From a virus (taxonomy: Duplodnaviria; Heunggongvirae; Uroviricota; Caudoviricetes), in the IMG/VR virus record IMGVR_UViG_2703718859_000008: a stretch of 6,524 nucleotides of DNA. One strand, written 5' to 3'. A model generated the notes under the pieces. It was not told where the DNA came from. It ran no database searches and saw only the letters and a list, made by a program, of their open reading frames with translations. Made by a program: the position numbers and the translations under genes. This document shows, one piece after another, positions 226 to 6,524 of this stretch (the stretch's first letter is position 1; every line of letters begins with the position of its first letter).

Positions 226-417
226 ACCCACTTTTACTCCCCACTTTTCACAATTCCCCATCTCGTTAAAGGCGTGGGATTTGTAATTTTTATCATACTG
301 TTTCATAAGGATTTTTTTGCTCCCCACTTTTTGGGATGTATACAGGTCAAAAAGTGGGGGATCGTGTTTAAATTTTGTTAAATTCCCCATGCCCACCACT
401 TTTGCCCCCCACTTTTT
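226..417. repeat. iteron-like repeat cluster, putative replication origin
   Basis: Five direct copies of CCCCACTTTT or its CCACTTTT core at about 227-235, 239-248, 322-331, 396-403 and 407-416, plus one inverted copy (AAAAAGTGGGGG at 349-360). AT-rich spacers at about 281-320 and 361-390. The cluster lies immediately 3' of the helicase gene stop (416-418). Confidence 0.5.
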
Positions 418-1825
418 ACAGTGGCCCTACATCATCGCCGTCAACATAGATAACGCCGTCTTTTTCCAGCTTGCCCAGCCAGCGCCGGAAGTGCTTTATT
501 TCGTACCCCAGTTTTTTCATGTCATCACGTAACAGCGGGATCGTGCACTTGTCGCCGTTCTGTGTGCGTGAACGGATACACCCCCATAGCGCGGTATGGT
601 TTTCCGTCTTGTTGCCTGCCTCTTCGATGCGCTCCAGTTCAACGGGAGGGCGCGGCTTATCCACCACCACCAGCGACGTGATTAACTCCCCGTCAGCGTC
701 GGTAAAAAGCTCCACCACCCGCAAATCATAGGCAGCCTCTTTGAGTTCCTCCGCGTCCTTCATTTTGGTGCATGAGATAACCAGCGCTTCGCTTCCTGCG
801 TCCTCCCTGCGTATCCGGTATTCAGCATCCAGCGAAGCACGAAATGCACTGGAACCGCGCGCGCCTTTCGTCTCATCCTTGCCGGAATGGTGAACCACCA
901 GCACCGTGGCCCCTGTGCGTCGTTTCAGTTCGTCACAACCACGGATAAACGCCCCCATATCACGGGAATCATTTTCATCATTGCCACCAAAGCAACGCGC
1001 CAGAGTATCAAGAATAATCATGCGTACAGGTTTACCCGTTTCCCGCTCCACCTGACGGGCAGCGATAACCATTTCATCAACATCAAGCGGGACAGCCGGA
1101 AAGATGGGACGGTTTACCAGATACAGATTTTTCACCTGCTCACCGTGCACAACCTCCCAGGCTTTTACACGACGCGGAACGCCGATACCGCCTTCACCAA
1201 CCACATAGAGAACAGCGCCATGCGCCACCCTGCGGCCTCCCCACTGGCGGCCCGTGGAAACGTGACACGCCCACGATCCGGCAAGGAATGATTTATAGGA
1301 ACCGCTCGCCCCGTATATGCTGCAAAGCGACGATGCCGGAATAATCCCCTTTACCACGTAATCTAATTGCGTGTCGTATCCGGTAGATCCAACGCTCATC
1401 GGTAGCGTGGTTTTTCGCTGGGGGATTTTTTTCATGACCAGGCTTTCCCCGCGTTCCCATGCCTCCCTAAGCCGTGGAAGCTGGTCGCTCCATTCCTCCA
1501 GCAATTCGAAATTTTCAGAAAGTAGCCGCGCCTCCTGGACTCCGGCGATCGCCAGTTTCGTGGCGATGGTTAACAGCTGCGGCTCTTCAATATTTCCGGC
1601 GCGTATCACCGTCGCCCTGTATCGCCCATCATCAACAATCTGGAGGTTATCCAGTTCGCTTAACTGATAACGCCCCAGATAAACGGGAGGGACTGGATCT
1701 CCTGCTTTTTTTGCCTGTGCAATGATGTAATGCTCTGCGAATGAATGAGCATCAATACCCGCAAAAATAATCGCATCGGTGTATTTATCTTTCGGTAATC
1801 GTTTTACGTTCGGTGCCAGTTTCAT
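416..1825 (-). CDS. replication-associated RecA-fold ATPase/helicase (AAA_25/RepA-like) with C-terminal winged-helix-like segment
   Basis: 469-aa ORF. Walker A-like GASGSYKS, Walker B-like hydrophobic stretch ending in D (MIILDT), and VHHSGKD motif typical of RecA-like replicative helicases. AGGAG Shine-Dalgarno 6 nt upstream of the ATG. ATGA start/stop overlap with the upstream 99-aa gene. N-terminal ~150 aa not recognised. Confidence 0.75.
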   Translation of the reverse strand: MKLAPNVKRLPKDKYTDAIIFAGIDAHSFAEHYIIAQAKKAGDPVPPVYLGRYQLSELDNLQIVDDGRYRATVIRAGNIEEPQLLTIATKLAIAGVQEARLLSENFELLEEWSDQLPRLREAWERGESLVMKKIPQRKTTLPMSVGSTGYDTQLDYVVKGIIPASSLCSIYGASGSYKSFLAGSWACHVSTGRQWGGRRVAHGAVLYVVGEGGIGVPRRVKAWEVVHGEQVKNLYLVNRPIFPAVPLDVDEMVIAARQVERETGKPVRMIILDTLARCFGGNDENDSRDMGAFIRGCDELKRRTGATVLVVHHSGKDETKGARGSSAFRASLDAEYRIRREDAGSEALVISCTKMKDAEELKEAAYDLRVVELFTDADGELITSLVVVDKPRPPVELERIEEAGNKTENHTALWGCIRSRTQNGDKCTIPLLRDDMKKLGYEIKHFRRWLGKLEKDGVIYVDGDDVGPL

Positions 1826-2121
1826 TTTTTACTCCTGAATCCGTTAATCATGGTTTTCAGCTTCTGGATGTTTGCCCGTGCCCTGGCGTTGCTGGTGGGC
1901 ACGTTATGCGGCGCGGTCTGTACCAGAGAAAAATCACGCCGGAACTGATAAACAGGCATCACGCAATCATATTCGTAACCTTCACGGCGGTAAGTTACGC
2001 ACCGTCCCGCCACGCCCTTAATCATTACCGTGCCGCCGTACTGGTCGCGGTAAATATCACCGCGCGTAAATTTAGGGTGAGTGTTGCCACTGGCAGTTAA
2101 GCCAGAATATTTAAGTTTCAT
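1822..2121 (-). CDS. hypothetical small protein (99 aa)
   Basis: ORF with GGAGA Shine-Dalgarno-like motif about 10 nt upstream of the ATG. Stop overlaps the helicase start (ATGA). Sits in a same-strand overlapping gene chain. No recognisable motif. Confidence 0.55.
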   Translation of the reverse strand: MKLKYSGLTASGNTHPKFTRGDIYRDQYGGTVMIKGVAGRCVTYRREGYEYDCVMPVYQFRRDFSLVQTAPHNVPTSNARARANIQKLKTMINGFRSKK

Positions 2122-2586: not shown

Positions 2587-2818
2587 AACCCCCCCCATTT
2601 TCACAATCAGCAATCAGGATAGCTTTGGCCTCATTCAGCGCCATATCAGCACTAAGTTGCATAACCGCCAGCGAATGAGGGACGAAAGTCCCGGCATATT
2701 CTGTTTCACTGGTGGCGTGCTTATGTGCCCTGTCCGCGATAACAGAAATATCAATCAGCGCGTGCATCAGCGTTTTGATGGCTTCGGCGGCTGCGTCCGG
2801 TGTGGTTTTATTGTGCAT
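2579..2818 (-). CDS. hypothetical small protein (79 aa, MHNKTTPDAAAEAIKTLMHALIDISVIADRAHK...)
   Basis: C-terminal part of the 228-aa track ORF. The portion upstream of the ATG at 2818..2816 is Pro/Arg/Leu-rich and looks like off-frame translation. AGGGGGA Shine-Dalgarno about 6 nt upstream of this ATG. Confidence 0.45.
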   Translation of the reverse strand: MHNKTTPDAAAEAIKTLMHALIDISVIADRAHKHATSETEYAGTFVPHSLAVMQLSADMALNEAKAILIADCENGGGYA

Positions 2819-3368
2819 AGGTTTCCCCCTGGCGAATACGGGCGGCAAATACAGCAACACAACCGGACGGGCAACGGCTACGCGCTTCGCGTTCCGTCCA
2901 GGCGGTGACGTGGATGATTTGATGGTCTGACGCGCCAAAGATGATAAAGCGCCAGAGAAAGGCGGTTTGAGAATGTACAAGGGTAGGGATAGTAGCCATG
3001 TTGGCAGCCTCCTCAGTGTGGTTAAGATAACCGCCACCGGAAACGCCAATTTCGCTGGTGGCGGACTGTACAGGGTTGGCGTAACCGGACACTGAAGAAA
3101 CCGGCGCGGATTGCTCCGCCCCCGTACAGCCCACCATTGATAAGGTGTGACTATGCGGCACAAAAAAACACGCGGGGCGCGTGTTATGCGCTTCAGTTTT
3201 GCCCAGGACGCCAATCCCGGCACCCGTTTTATGAGGTGCGCGGGAATCATAGCTATTTTCGACACTGGCGATCAACTGGTTTTTTTCTCCGATATTCAGG
3301 GCCAGAAAACGCCACACAAAGGCCGTTTGTGTGTGTACAAGGTGTGGTATATGATTTACGGCAACCAT
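2808..3368 (-). CDS. hypothetical protein with two paralogous small modules (IPxLVHxQTAFxWRF motif twice) joined by a Gly/Ser/Ala-rich linker; possible in-frame internal start at 2999
   Basis: 186-aa ORF, first gene after the repeat-bearing intergenic region. GAGGAG Shine-Dalgarno 6 nt upstream of ATG 3368. A second in-frame ATG at 2999..2997 is preceded by GAGGAGG and begins the second copy of the motif. Differences between copies fall largely at third codon positions, consistent with protein-level conservation. Confidence 0.5.
   Translation of the reverse strand: MVAVNHIPHLVHTQTAFVWRFLALNIGEKNQLIASVENSYDSRAPHKTGAGIGVLGKTEAHNTRPACFFVPHSHTLSMVGCTGAEQSAPVSSVSGYANPVQSATSEIGVSGGGYLNHTEEAANMATIPTLVHSQTAFLWRFIIFGASDHQIIHVTAWTEREARSRCPSGCVAVFAARIRQGETYAQ
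3161..3184 (-). terminator. intrinsic-terminator-like hairpin plus T7 tract inside the coding region of the 186-aa ORF
   Basis: On the minus strand, 8-bp stem AACACGCG/CGCGTGTT with a 3-nt loop, followed by a run of T (plus-strand A7 at 3161-3167). In frame it encodes NTRPACFF. Confidence 0.3.
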
Positions 3369-3439
3369 AACGGCTCCTCGTTTACGTTGTTGGTTAGAAG
3401 CCCCGTTACTGCTCCTACAGTGCGGGGTTTCGTCTTTTC

Positions 3440-3545
3440 GTACATGAGATACACATAATCATCATGTGAGATACACGTTACATTGATGTGATATACATTT
3501 CAAGTTTTTTATATCTCACTTTACTGTATAGTGATATACACACAA
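3440..3545. promoter_or_regulatory. divergent promoter/operator region with phased GTGA(G/T)ATACAC repeats
   Basis: Direct copies at about 3445-3455 (TGAGATACACA), 3466-3476 (GTGAGATACAC), 3488-3498 (GTGATATACAT) and 3531-3543 (GTGATATACACAC), spaced about 21-22 bp or twice that. One inverted copy at 3511-3520 (ATATCTCACT). Lies between the start of the minus-strand operon (3368) and the plus-strand 100-aa gene (3563); AT-rich. Confidence 0.5.
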
Positions 3546-3562
3546 TAAACTGGTGATTAATT

Positions 3563-3865
3563 ATGTCCGTATACAAAAACGCAAAATCTCAAATGACAAC
3601 GCTCAGAGTCCCTCACGATGTCATGCAAGGCATGGAATCCGTTAAGCTGGACGGCGAGAGCAATGCAGGATTTATCGTAACCGCCATGCGCGGAGAAATA
3701 GCACGCCGCCAGGCAGAAGGCAGCGGAGAAAATCCCCTTGTGTCTTCACTGGATGCTCTGGCTAAGGTCGAACAAATCGGCATCAAAGCAGCGGAAGAAA
3801 TCGGGCAACTTGTCACCGTTGCACGCGAAGAACTCCAGCGTCGCAAGGCCAAAGAAGCGGAATAA
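3563..3865 (+). CDS. small putative DNA-binding regulator (100 aa; possible ribbon-helix-helix-like N-terminus), function unconfirmed
   Basis: Only convincing plus-strand ORF. GGTGA about 8 nt upstream of the ATG. N-terminal MTTLRVPHDV segment followed by predicted helices resembles a beta-strand-then-helix DNA-binding fold. Charged helical C-terminus. Followed by a plus-strand terminator. Confidence 0.5.
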   Translation: MSVYKNAKSQMTTLRVPHDVMQGMESVKLDGESNAGFIVTAMRGEIARRQAEGSGENPLVSSLDALAKVEQIGIKAAEEIGQLVTVAREELQRRKAKEAE

Positions 3866-3943
3866 TCCACCAGCAAACCACCACACTGATCACATTGCCC
3901 ACCAGCCAGCAAATCGCTATGATGTTCGGGCTTATGTTTAGTG

Positions 3944-3972
3944 TTTTCCCATTGGCGACCGCCCCCGGTCGC
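3944..3972 (+). terminator. rho-independent terminator for the 100-aa gene
   Basis: Stem GGCGACC (3944-3950), loop GCCCCC, stem GGTCGCC (3957-3963), followed by TTTGTTTTAT. Located between convergent genes (100-aa gene on plus, alpA-like gene on minus). Confidence 0.55.
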
Positions 3973-4000
3973 CTTTGTTTTATGTGTCATATGCTCCCCT

Positions 4001-4225
4001 TTACGCTGCCTTACCTGAATTAATGCGATCCCGGCTTTTAACCCATTCCATAACCTCGGACAGCAGCCAACCTACAGAACGACCGCCCAGATTAAGGCGT
4101 GACGGAAATCGCCCTTTTTTCTCCAGTTCGTAGCGTGTAGTACGACATACTCCAGTTAACTTACGACATTCATCCTCACGGATTACGCGATCTGATAGTG
4201 ATTGAAATTGTGTATTTTGATTCAT
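4001..4225 (-). CDS. alpA: AlpA-family (Phage_AlpA / excisionase-like HTH) transcriptional regulator
   Basis: 74-aa ORF. The segment CRKLTGVCRTTRYELEKKGRFPSRLNLGGRSVGWLLSEVMEWVKSR matches the conserved AlpA pattern (HTH, FP, LGxRSVGW, EW..R) as recalled from memory. Position near a P4-type integrase is typical. Confidence 0.8.
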   Translation of the reverse strand: MNQNTQFQSLSDRVIREDECRKLTGVCRTTRYELEKKGRFPSRLNLGGRSVGWLLSEVMEWVKSRDRINSGKAA

Positions 4226-4260
4226 AAAAAAACGTCCTCGAACGTTGCCGAACGAGGACG
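4226..4260 (-). terminator. intrinsic terminator after the int/264-aa transcript; hairpin also sequesters the alpA Shine-Dalgarno
   Basis: Minus strand reads CGTCCTCG-TTCGGCAACGTT-CGAGGACG followed by TTTTTTT and then immediately the alpA ATG. The inner part can extend the stem around a GCAA tetraloop. The only Shine-Dalgarno-like sequence for alpA (GAGGA, about 9 nt upstream) is the 3' arm of the stem. Confidence 0.55.
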
Positions 4261-4287
4261 ATTCTAGACGGTGGTAAAACGCCGTTT

Positions 4288-4320
4288 GTGTGATATCACA
4301 CTATCGGTACGTGATATCAC
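4288..4320. promoter_or_regulatory. pair of palindromic operator-like sites (GTGTGATATCACAC and GTGATATCAC)
   Basis: Perfect 14-bp palindrome at 4288-4301 and perfect 10-bp palindrome at 4311-4320, centres about 21 bp apart. The second overlaps the stop codon of the 264-aa gene. Core resembles the repeats at 3445-3543. Confidence 0.5.
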
Positions 4321-5111
4321 TTTTGACGTTTCGGAACGTCACCAATATCACGCCCCAAATATTTCTGCCATGTCTGCCTGTGAGTGCTGGGTAGCTCAAC
4401 CCCTCTTTGCGCAGCGATAACCTCTATCATTTCTGCAATTTTGGTTACTGGTGTCTCCTCCAAATCCACATCCTGCATCTCAGGAATCAGTTTTATGAGT
4501 GCAGGTATTATCTCGGCTTTTTTAGCTATGGTTTTCGGAGATTCTCTATCACCTCCGCCATATACAGGTTTTGCCGCATAATCAAAATTCGAAAGTTCAT
4601 TTTCGAAAACGACTAATCTTTCCTCCGGAATAAACAACCCCCAAATTCCAGCTAAATATAGCTTTTTGTAATGTGCTTTTATGGTGTAAAGATGTTGTGG
4701 TTTGACGTCAACAGCATTGTGCGGACCTGATAATTCAACATCCACAAGATACTGCGACGGAATTGCAAAAAAACCCTTTAAATAATTTGCATACCAACCT
4801 GGCAGTCTGAATATCCCTGTGTCGGTATCCTCAACATAATCATCATTGTAATGAAGATAAGATATCTTATACATATCACTATCTATTACATTTCGTTCTT
4901 TTATCTGTTCAACATAATAACTTTCGCTATCATCTTCAAAAATCACTCTAGCAGAGCACTTATTCTCACTTATTAATAAGTCGTTTTCACCAATATATGC
5001 ACATATTTCAAGTCTATTGGTTGCCCCAAGATGTAGAATATCATCCACCGTGCAGCCGAGTTTTTTTGCTGCCATAGGCAAAGTATAATATACACGAGGA
5101 AAATCTTTCAT
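4317..5111 (-). CDS. uncharacterised 264-aa protein with N-terminal HTH-like segment (excisionase/AlpA-like HTH_17 pattern) and unknown C-terminal domain; AT-rich cargo gene
   Basis: AAGGTGG Shine-Dalgarno 6-7 nt upstream. ATG overlaps the integrase stop (ATGA). N-terminal YYTLPMAAKKLGCTVDDILHLGATNRLEI resembles a helix-turn-helix. Region about 4400-5100 is visibly more AT-rich than the rest of the window. Confidence 0.7.
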   Translation of the reverse strand: MKDFPRVYYTLPMAAKKLGCTVDDILHLGATNRLEICAYIGENDLLISENKCSARVIFEDDSESYYVEQIKERNVIDSDMYKISYLHYNDDYVEDTDTGIFRLPGWYANYLKGFFAIPSQYLVDVELSGPHNAVDVKPQHLYTIKAHYKKLYLAGIWGLFIPEERLVVFENELSNFDYAAKPVYGGGDRESPKTIAKKAEIIPALIKLIPEMQDVDLEETPVTKIAEMIEVIAAQRGVELPSTHRQTWQKYLGRDIGDVPKRQK

Positions 5112-6328
5112 TTAGCCACCTTCAGCATAACAATATTTTCATGATTTCCAGCCAGCACATCGAGACGCTCAACCCATAGATTCAGAGCGTCCCGTTTCGC
5201 CTGTAAATAGCGTGAATGGTTATAGGTTTTTTGCTGACCGGGCATCTGATGCGCTGTGATGTGCTCCACGATATGCGGATCGATACCTAAATCGTTCAGC
5301 ATCGTTGTAAACGTGTGGCGAAAGTCATGCAGCGTCCAGTGTTCCTGGTTAAGCCGCTTATGCGCATTTCGCCCATATTGCGCTACCGTGGTATCTTTTT
5401 TCAGTTCTCCGAGCAATAACCCTGTATGTCGGTTCTGCTCCACCAGCTTCTGAATGAACGGCAAAATGCCATCGGGGATTGGCCTGAATATCGTTACCTT
5501 CGTTTTGCTGTGCTCTTTTGGCACTGTCCACAACATTTCTTTCAGATCCCATTCTTTGATCTCTGAAAGTCTGACCTCTGCCGTTCTGCACCCGAACACA
5601 ATCAGCAAGCGCATTAACGCGCTGTAGTAAGGCGCGAACACATCACCATCGATAGCGCGTAAAATTTCCTTTAATTCGCTGTTACTGTGCACCCTCTCGC
5701 GAATTTCTGCTCTCTTACCCACATCGCTGACGATCAAATCGTCCAGGGCATTACTGAACGCGTAGCGCCTCCTGCGGCAGAACTTTAGCGCCTGTTTGCA
5801 GGTTTGCATGACGTGCCCTGCTGCTACTGGTGCTTTTTTTCGTACACGGTCAAAACATGCGATCCACTGCCTTGTATCACATTTATCAAGAGGAATTGCC
5901 CCTATATGGCAAATGATGTGCTTATCCATACGTTGCACCAGCTTTATGTAGTCTTTGCGGTTATCCTTCGCATATTCATCCAGCCAGTAGTTAATCGCCT
6001 CCTTCACCGTAACGGGTTTTAGCGCTTCCTGTACTGTGGAGCACAACTCATAACGGGGGTTTTTACCCTCAGCCAGCCATGCCCGGCACTGTGCGCGTTT
6101 TTCCCTTGCAGCTTTCAGCGACAATTCAGGGTAAGCCCCCAGCTTTAACCGCTCTGCGGCAACCTCACGCCCTCCCGTTCGGTACCGGAAATACCAGGTT
6201 AATTTGCCGCCCTTTGAGTGTTTAATCTCCAGCCCGCCCCCGTCGGAGTAAAAACGCTCTTTTTCTGCCTGGACAGCCACCAATTTTTTTAACGTTGAAT
6301 CGCTCAGTTTGTTTAGTGCCTTTCCCAC
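5108..6328 (-). CDS. int: tyrosine recombinase / P4-type phage integrase (N-terminal arm-binding DUF4102-like domain)
   Basis: C-terminal catalytic motifs HDFRHTFTTMLNDLGIDPHIVEHITAH and a downstream Tyr. N-terminal GGGLEIKHSKGGKLTWYFRYR matches the arm-binding domain of P4-family integrases. Track ORF runs to 6439, but its first 37 codons are Cys/Val/Leu-rich and start on an unsupported GTG. The in-frame GTG at 6328..6326 is preceded by AAAGAGGA and begins ...GKALNKLSDSTLKK, typical of this family. Confidence 0.85.
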   Translation of the reverse strand: MGKALNKLSDSTLKKLVAVQAEKERFYSDGGGLEIKHSKGGKLTWYFRYRTGGREVAAERLKLGAYPELSLKAAREKRAQCRAWLAEGKNPRYELCSTVQEALKPVTVKEAINYWLDEYAKDNRKDYIKLVQRMDKHIICHIGAIPLDKCDTRQWIACFDRVRKKAPVAAGHVMQTCKQALKFCRRRRYAFSNALDDLIVSDVGKRAEIRERVHSNSELKEILRAIDGDVFAPYYSALMRLLIVFGCRTAEVRLSEIKEWDLKEMLWTVPKEHSKTKVTIFRPIPDGILPFIQKLVEQNRHTGLLLGELKKDTTVAQYGRNAHKRLNQEHWTLHDFRHTFTTMLNDLGIDPHIVEHITAHQMPGQQKTYNHSRYLQAKRDALNLWVERLDVLAGNHENIVMLKVAK

Positions 6329-6339
6329 TATCAGATCCT

Positions 6340-6524
6340 CTTTCCTGTCCTCCAACCTCAAAAAACTGACCACACAACTGACCACACATTTCGTTGAAGC
6401 TCTACGAACAACGACGAACAACAACAAACAAGAAAACACAATAATTCAATACATATCAAACACATACACAAACAACCACGAACACCCCCGAACCACAAAA
6501 AACACTAAATGAGAAAATACGGGT
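6340..6524. repeat. strand-biased AC-rich tract with short tandem repeats upstream of int (possible promoter / arm-site / att-proximal region)
   Basis: Plus strand is almost devoid of G and T over about 180 bp. Tandem ACTGACCACACA x2 at 6365-6388 and CGAACAAC x2 at 6405-6422. Immediately 5' of the integrase start. Confidence 0.35.

Follow-up and report, generated by a model that had tools for sequence, protein, structure and literature searches.

A 100-amino-acid (aa) protein of the YlcI/YnfO family, encoded by a single gene running against its neighbours, is a candidate regulator of an Escherichia coli satellite island, part of which was analysed here as a stretch of 6,524 nucleotides (hereafter the window). 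The gene is under purifying selection and lies beside an array of real, non-random repeats, and a ribbon-helix-helix (RHH) fold of its product is well supported by structure modelling. From the co-variation of repeats and protein between islands we consider it likely that the protein binds the repeats and, with less assurance but still as the favoured reading, that it is a type-specific autoregulated repressor of the leftward operon extending from the icd-like gene to the helicase gene. That it is also the main maintenance repressor of the island is doubtful.

The gene and its island context

The window covers the integrase-proximal part of an E. coli chromosomal satellite island. It is collinear with, and 97–99% identical to, an island adjoining rcnR in E. 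coli S19-141, the sole break in collinearity being window 2820–3285. Further on, the S19-141 island encodes PerC, SSB, an HK97-type major capsid protein and a prohead protease, and its gene order corresponds to the layout of a capsid-forming phage-inducible island. Among the hallmarks of such islands, int, alpA and the RepA-type helicase gene fall inside the window, and the capsid and protease genes outside it. The genes and signals are as follows (ORF, open reading frame):

5108–6322, minus strand: tyrosine integrase
4317–5111, minus strand: 264-aa ORF, function not assigned
4001–4225, minus strand: alpA
3954–3983, plus strand: intrinsic terminator of the rightward transcript (hairpin 3954–3973, then TTTGTTTTAT)
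3563–3865, plus strand: YlcI/YnfO-family gene, 100 aa, ATG start, TAA stop
3552–3556, plus strand: likely ribosome-binding site GGTGA, 6 nt before the ATG (read from the sequence)
2808–2999, minus strand: Icd-like (host cell-division inhibitor-like) ORF, the first protein gene 3' of an RNA cassette (start likewise read from the sequence)
1822–2121, minus strand: DUF4222 gene
416–1825, minus strand: RepA-type AAA_25 helicase
Minus strand, beside the icd-like and DUF4222 genes: several small ORFs

The sequence-only reading had described a lone gene transcribed against the grain, beginning right after phased repeats and equipped with its own terminator, and these observations hold. Apart from ORF 3563–3865 the window has no credible gene on the plus strand, the integrase gene, 264-aa ORF, alpA, icd-like gene, small ORFs, DUF4222 gene and helicase gene all being on the minus strand. 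Its start lies 22 bp past the last repeat, and the terminator hairpin (an 8-bp stem with seven G-C pairs and a 4-nt loop) follows 89 nt after the stop codon and is conserved in four related loci (L001, L014, L031 and L034). Related loci have GGAG or GAGG at the position of the ribosome-binding site.

Purifying selection is evident from dN/dS values of 0.06–0.19 against ten homologues, for which dS is saturated. A total of 247 homologues were found across the Enterobacterales, including Escherichia, Yersinia, Klebsiella, Enterobacter, Citrobacter, Serratia, Xenorhabdus, Photorhabdus and others, and the long form of the gene, as present here, occurs in 654 of 5426 complete E. coli genomes (~12%). 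No match to the gene turned up in a tblastn search of 50,697 phage records, and the long form is accordingly assigned to satellites or islands and not to phages. A 125-aa ORF overlaps the gene on the opposite strand (3613–3990), which could suggest that 3563–3865 is a chance reading frame and the real feature only antisense-strand sequence or the promoter region. The conservation pattern rules this out: with low dN/dS, homologues in many genera, a match to a curated family and a confident fold model, the probability of a chance frame is negligible.

Several features surround the gene and its operon. According to the S19-141 annotation, the spacer between the gene and alpA (3866–4000) includes a truncated minus-strand pseudogene of Icd-like type; it also has a 42-aa hydrophobic plus-strand ORF with a TTG start (3895–4023) and a promoter-like match at 3895–3923, and in other islands it contains variable small plus-strand ORFs. 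The right end past the integrase start (6349–6519) is A/C-rich and G-poor, with short direct repeats of the ACGAACAAC type and two copies of CTGACCACACA at ~6365–6388; these could represent arm sites for the integrase or belong to the attachment-site region beside rcnR. Immediately 3' of the helicase gene, six copies of CCCCACTTTT, direct and inverted, occupy window 227–417 and are likely replication-origin iterons; the origin of islands of this kind is located downstream of the helicase gene (PMC6092414).

Protein family and predicted fold

The protein matches the NCBIfam model YlcI_YnfO_N (NF041551) with 68 bits (cutoff 30), residues 8–49 covering model positions 1–42 of 42, and RefSeq assigns the identical gene in strain S19-141 to the YlcI/YnfO family, which is defined by these N-terminal 42 residues. 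PHROGs lists the family as function unknown, and a literature search found no functional study of YlcI, YnfO or DUF3950. The Pfam family DUF3950 (PF13132), to which K-12 YlcI belongs, gave no match to the 100-aa protein at E≤0.1 and was matched by two of 45 relatives. None of the curated RHH models exceeded its threshold for the 100-aa protein (PSK_trans_fac, E=0.02); sub-threshold Pfam matches across 45 family members were mostly to RHH families (PSK_trans_fac, TacA1, NikA-like, CopG_antitoxin, RHH_1 and RHH_5).

The strand-then-helix N-terminus proposed from the letters alone was recovered by AlphaFold2, which predicts an extended segment at residues ~9–17, helices at 18–27 and 34–53/54, and a long helix at 58–99. 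The full-length model has a pLDDT of 81 and a model of residues 1–57 a pLDDT of 91.8. The predicted strand-helix-helix topology spans ~45 residues, as in the RHH superfamily, and structural similarity to solved RHH proteins was found. Fold searches with the full-length model gave no informative match because the long helix dominates, and a sequence search of the PDB gave no significant match. The strands of Arc and Mnt end in LRWP and FRMP, and RHH proteins open helix B with a G-x-S/T/N turn; in the present protein R15-x-P17 closes the strand and G31-E32-S33 precedes helix B, with E32 nearly invariant and S/T at position 33 conserved in alignments. The hhalign register agrees with these strand-end and turn matches and is sensible, and its probabilities of 5% to Arc and 1% to Mnt indicate no significant sequence relationship. 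Taken together, an RHH fold is well supported by the models, with the predicted N-terminal domain at residues ~9–54.

The predicted C-terminal helix (58–99) is amphipathic and well conserved, with a pLDDT of 83–95 over residues 61–100 and hydrophobic residues every 3–4 positions (L59, L63, L66, V69, I72, A76, I80, L84, V87 and L91). On this model it probably mediates oligomerisation by joining dimers. In short family members (~60 aa) this helix is absent and a basic tail closes the protein. Residues 45–86 gave a borderline profile match (E=0.005) to the helix-hairpin-helix of the archaeal nuclease Hef, with a Hef-like motif L-x-x-V-E-x-I-G-x-K-A-x-E-I at residues 57–90 (window 3730–3830) in which G73 is invariant. 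The structure model lends no support to a helix-hairpin-helix reading of the C-terminal part, predicting one continuous helix instead.

Repeat array, putative promoters and co-variation

The repeats lie between the gene and the start of the leftward operon, together with putative promoter elements and a hairpin:

3444–3454, plus strand: site 0, extra upstream copy, ATGAGATACAC
3466–3476, plus strand: site 1, GTGAGATACAC, just past the putative leftward -10
3488–3498, plus strand: site 2, GTGATATACAT, within the 17-bp spacer of the putative leftward promoter
3510–3519, minus strand: site 3, inverted, GTGAGATATA, upstream of the gene's own -10
3531–3541, plus strand: site 4, GTGATATACAC, overlapping the likely start site and the last bases of the rightward -10
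3475–3503, minus strand: putative leftward promoter of the icd-to-helicase operon (-35 TTGAAA at 3503–3498, 17-bp spacer, -10 TAACGT at 3480–3475)
3527–3532, plus strand: putative -10 TATAGT of the gene's own promoter, with a weak, T-rich -35
3400–3426: conserved hairpin CCCCG...CGGGG, flanked by the array on one side and the first leftward start codon on the other

With the weaker fifth copy at 3444–3454, there are five 11-bp repeats whose start-to-start spacings are 22, 22, ~22 and ~21 bp. GTGAKATA occurs four times, always within 3466–3538 (73 bp), against an expectation of 0.30 per window, and none of 200 shuffles reached four copies. A strict consensus promoter scan called neither the leftward nor the rightward promoter, and the elements listed above were recognised from an alignment of 15 islands. 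The conserved scaffold there is TCAA(G), the minus-strand -35 TTGA(C/A), followed at exactly 17 bp by a TAnnnT -10; the columns for TCAA and for the TA of this -10 do not vary, unlike the bases in between. On the plus strand, the 15 islands share a T-tract and a conserved TGTG-TATAnT. The array sites would thus overlap the -35, -10 and +1 of both divergent promoters. The hairpin at 3400–3426 is present in all 35 related loci compared below, even with differing flanks, and a smaller overlapping hairpin (3411–3428) with the same T-rich tail was flagged as plus-strand terminator-like; the element could be part of the 5' untranslated region of the leftward transcript or a plus-strand terminator.

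The 35 related loci come from E. coli and eight other genera and include the model island EcCICFT073. In all 35 the gene is divergent from the icd-like gene, and four sites lie at ~-97, -75, -52 and -30 from the ATG. The cores of these sites are alike within an island and fall into at least eight types between islands, each accompanied by its own N-terminal arm and strand type:

MTTLRV: core GTGAKATACAC (this window)
LTTVRV or LFTVRV: core GTGTGTTTCA (E. coli, Xenorhabdus, Photorhabdus, Serratia)
SLTARI: core GTGTAAG (E. coli, Enterobacter)
QISIRI: core TGTGATTC
MKNIRF: core GTGTGYA
QLNARF or QINARF: core GGTATTCA or GGGATTCA
LKNIRI or VKNVRI: core GTGTGTATTTA
ALKARV: core GTGTGGCCCAC (EcCICFT073)

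In Mantel tests, distances between site regions correlated with those between N-terminal domains (r=0.65–0.70, p=2e-4), compared with 0.23–0.31 for the C-terminal half of the protein and 0.14 (not significant) for Icd. In 25 pairs sharing at least 90% of the C-terminal domain but with different N-terminal domains, the site regions were only 58% identical. Among types A, B, C and G, residues 1–16 differ by 31–69% and residues 17–50 by only 3–9%, so that divergence is concentrated in what would be the DNA-reading elements of an RHH protein. Types G and A, however, differ by few residues (the N-terminal arm, M11L, L14V and Q23E), and their cores differ at only two of seven positions, which is plausible for a change of specificity but falls short of proving one.

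Part of this co-variation could be simple linkage, as the sites and the N-terminal codons are only 30–120 bp apart, and linkage alone could make adjacent DNA co-vary with the gene even if the repeats were bound by AlpA, Icd, a replication protein (as iterons) or a helper or host factor. The ORF would then have an antitoxin-like or packaging accessory role, a notion to which the frequency of RHH domains in antitoxins and the position of K-12 ylcI, beside the DLP12 cos site and divergent from the terminase gene nohD, lend something. We regard it as improbable. On its other side the array has the icd gene at a similar distance, yet icd is not linked to site type: Icd-like proteins are near-identical across six site types. 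AlpA and the replication-protein types (D5-type primase, AAA_25 helicase and DUF927) are likewise shuffled relative to site type, and all three were rejected as the specificity partner of the repeats. Origin iterons are an unlikely identity for the array, given the separate set of six CCCCACTTTT copies where such islands have their origin (PMC6092414). The existence of at least eight island-specific site types would not be accounted for by a helper or host factor, and the window has no credible partner ORF on the plus strand after the gene. Binding of the repeats by the adjacent protein is therefore the preferred explanation.

Similar repeats occur near alpA. GTGAKAT is found 13 times in the window against 1.3 expected, and two perfect GTGATATCAC palindromes resembling the array cores lie 21 bp apart 5' of alpA (4290–4299 and 4311–4320). 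Recognition of both the array and these palindromes by one protein was ruled out by island L031, where YlcI type and array cores are different but alpA and the GTGATATCAC palindromes are identical. As other alpA types also have their own repeats, the GTGATATCAC palindromes belong to the alpA module.

Proposed silencing, induction and comparison with known systems

The position of the sites over both putative promoters makes an autoregulated repressor of the leftward operon the most likely role of the protein. The paired N-terminal strands of an RHH dimer would form a beta-ribbon reading the DNA major groove, and the long amphipathic C-terminal helix would join dimers, giving cooperative binding at sites two helical turns (22 bp) apart, the targets being the four to five 11-bp sites at 3444–3541. 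The leftward promoter, expected to drive isrK/C4, icd, the small ORFs, the DUF4222 gene and the helicase gene, would have its spacer and start region occupied at sites 1 and 2; binding at sites 3 and 4 would mask the -10 and start of the promoter of the gene itself and so limit synthesis of the protein. In the resting state the early/replication operon, including the toxic Icd-like gene, would be kept silent by the protein. The arm and beta-strand, together with the site cores, would act as an exchangeable specificity cassette, and we propose that different islands would therefore not cross-regulate.

The leftward leader also carries a cassette of two RNA elements:

3163–3239, minus strand: isrK-type RNA element (Rfam RF01394, 66 bits, gathering score 50), related to the target/seqA region of C4/CI immunity
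3054–3141, minus strand: C4-type antisense immunity RNA (Rfam RF01695, 77.6 bits, gathering score 45)

The cassette lies inside the non-collinear segment 2820–3285, which duplicates the 5' part of icd, and an RNA immunity cassette has already been reported in Gram-negative islands of this kind (PMC10111431). It is present in three of 17 related loci and missing in the other 14, including EcCICFT073 and the nearest relative of the window. The RNA cassette thus appears, from this distribution, to be an optional second lock and the RHH gene with its sites the constant core. The long ORF 2808–3368, residues 137–180 of which match NCBIfam NF033153, was rejected as a single 186-aa 'Ash+Icd' regulator protein, as it overlaps the isrK and C4 genes, a cassette inserted relative to the nearest island; its Pfam Phage_ASH match may partly reflect translated RNA genes.

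With isrK/C4 in the leftward leader, the protein is not the only candidate repressor in the window. The proposal of a candidate repressor made from the sequence alone gains from the operator-like, co-varying repeats over both putative promoters. Its further remark, that in satellite islands such a regulator typically sets the lysogeny/induction decision, finds no support here. In the islands tested, AlpA is the activator and a helper phage turns alpA on (PMC6092414; bioRxiv 10.1101/2022.09.08.507074), and in EcCICFT073 expression of AlpA alone leads to excision and replication despite the presence of a homologue of the gene (PMC6092414). Any repression can therefore be bypassed, and the protein is not the sole switch.

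These observations also favour an account in which the protein binds the repeats but merely autoregulates, fine-tunes or activates the leftward promoter, and silence results from the lack of AlpA, with or without C4 RNA. AlpA is necessary as well as sufficient for induction in EcCICFT073, the C4/isrK cassette is present in the window, and alpA has in its leader a terminator-like hairpin and repeats of its own, suggesting that the decision is taken at alpA. Against this, sites 1 and 2 lie inside the putative core of the leftward promoter, a position for repression and not for activation; the C4 cassette, missing in 14 of 17 related islands, cannot be a general silencer; and tight control would be expected of an operon whose first protein gene is toxic and Icd-like. 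We judge this account to be the less likely one, and retain the autoregulated repressor as the preferred reading.

Induction of an operon so repressed might proceed through AlpA-dependent transcription from the alpA promoter, running leftward, antisense through the gene and into the operon, a speculative idea but the most economical one, for which late-promoter (P_LL) transcription in satellite P4 offers a model. In the alpA leader (4226–4320, minus strand), whose region folds with z = -4.3, a strong hairpin (4233–4240/4253–4260) is followed by seven U directly before the alpA AUG. It looks like a terminator controlling alpA, and such a terminator combined with antitermination could explain AlpA self-activation or helper-dependent switching.

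Phage-inducible chromosomal islands carry virulence and defence genes between enterobacteria, and the whole life cycle of the Gram-positive islands depends on a master repressor. A global repressor has yet to be identified in Gram-negative islands of the present kind (PMC6092414), and no paper naming one emerged from our literature search; a recent survey has 'YlcI/YnfO family protein' only in its list of accessory genes of capsid-forming islands from Enterobacter (PMC13612085). A conserved divergent RHH gene with type-specific operators over the early promoter is a concrete repressor candidate. As a tentative generalisation, the RHH protein and its short-form relatives may be the missing repressor of the enterobacterial phage-inducible islands, a swappable arm/strand and four-site immunity cassette of at least eight non-cross-reacting types, with the repressor overridden or inactivated at induction through AlpA-driven convergent read-through or a helper-phage protein directed against it. 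If true, this would predict immunity groups among co-resident islands, provide a handle for island engineering and give the uncharacterised YlcI/YnfO family its first function. Neither the type of protein nor its mode of action is unusual; what is new is the proposed role.

The 100-aa protein shares its NCBIfam family with YlcI of DLP12, YnfO of Qin and C_RS30120 of EcCICFT073, which are short forms of ~59–64 aa with a basic tail and without the 45-residue C-terminal helix. C_RS30120 (59 aa; L037 7474–7653, E. coli CFT073 NC_004431.1 1380473–1380652) occupies the same position as the window gene, divergent from icd, with the same four-site scaffold and its own core GTGTGGCCCAC. To judge by the high number of its RefSeq locus tag, the gene seems to have been annotated late and may therefore have been overlooked in functional studies. 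K-12 ylcI (L038 6252–6834) is the last gene before the lambda-like cos of DLP12, on the strand opposite to nohD, which places short phage-borne members in a quite different context from the island copies. The same regulatory module was also seen in three islands (L020, L021 and L019) inserted in prophage late genes (the capsid E/decoration region and the large terminase gene), which are of the helper-embedded sort described in PMC10111431.

The arrangement can be set beside several known systems. A type II RHH antitoxin would not fit: the window has no credible plus-strand ORF between the gene and its terminator, and neighbouring plus-strand ORFs in other loci are variable and match no toxin family. 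Among RHH proteins of the Omega (pSM19035) and CopG type, Omega binds contiguous 7-bp heptads, whereas the putative sites here are of 11 bp and 22 bp apart, and the island protein has in addition a long C-terminal helix. The isrK/C4-type RNAs and icd-like gene at the head of the island operon recall the RNA immunity of P1 (c4-icd-ant) and P4 (CI RNA), to which the cassette corresponds, and P1 also combines a protein operator at the promoter with C4 RNA; RNA immunity nevertheless differs from an RHH protein in both molecule and mechanism. The Stl/Rpr repressors of the Gram-positive islands (SaPIs) are likewise island-encoded regulators divergent from the excision/replication operon, as is the silencer proposed here (PMC6092414). 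Stl is a larger, helix-turn-helix protein, co-oriented with int and inactivated by helper-phage proteins, whereas the present protein is predicted to be RHH and is encoded opposite to int, with AlpA activation in addition. It thus shares divergent transcription with the SaPI/PICI master repressors but neither the co-orientation with int nor the helix-turn-helix.

The closest working analogue, by analogy of architecture, would be Mnt of phage P22, an RHH protein with a C-terminal oligomerisation helix that is transcribed divergently from the operon it represses and whose operator lies over both promoters. Mnt and Arc in P22 immI have one operator and an operon carrying an antirepressor, whereas the island has an array of four to five sites 22 bp apart and an operon of satellite icd and replication genes.
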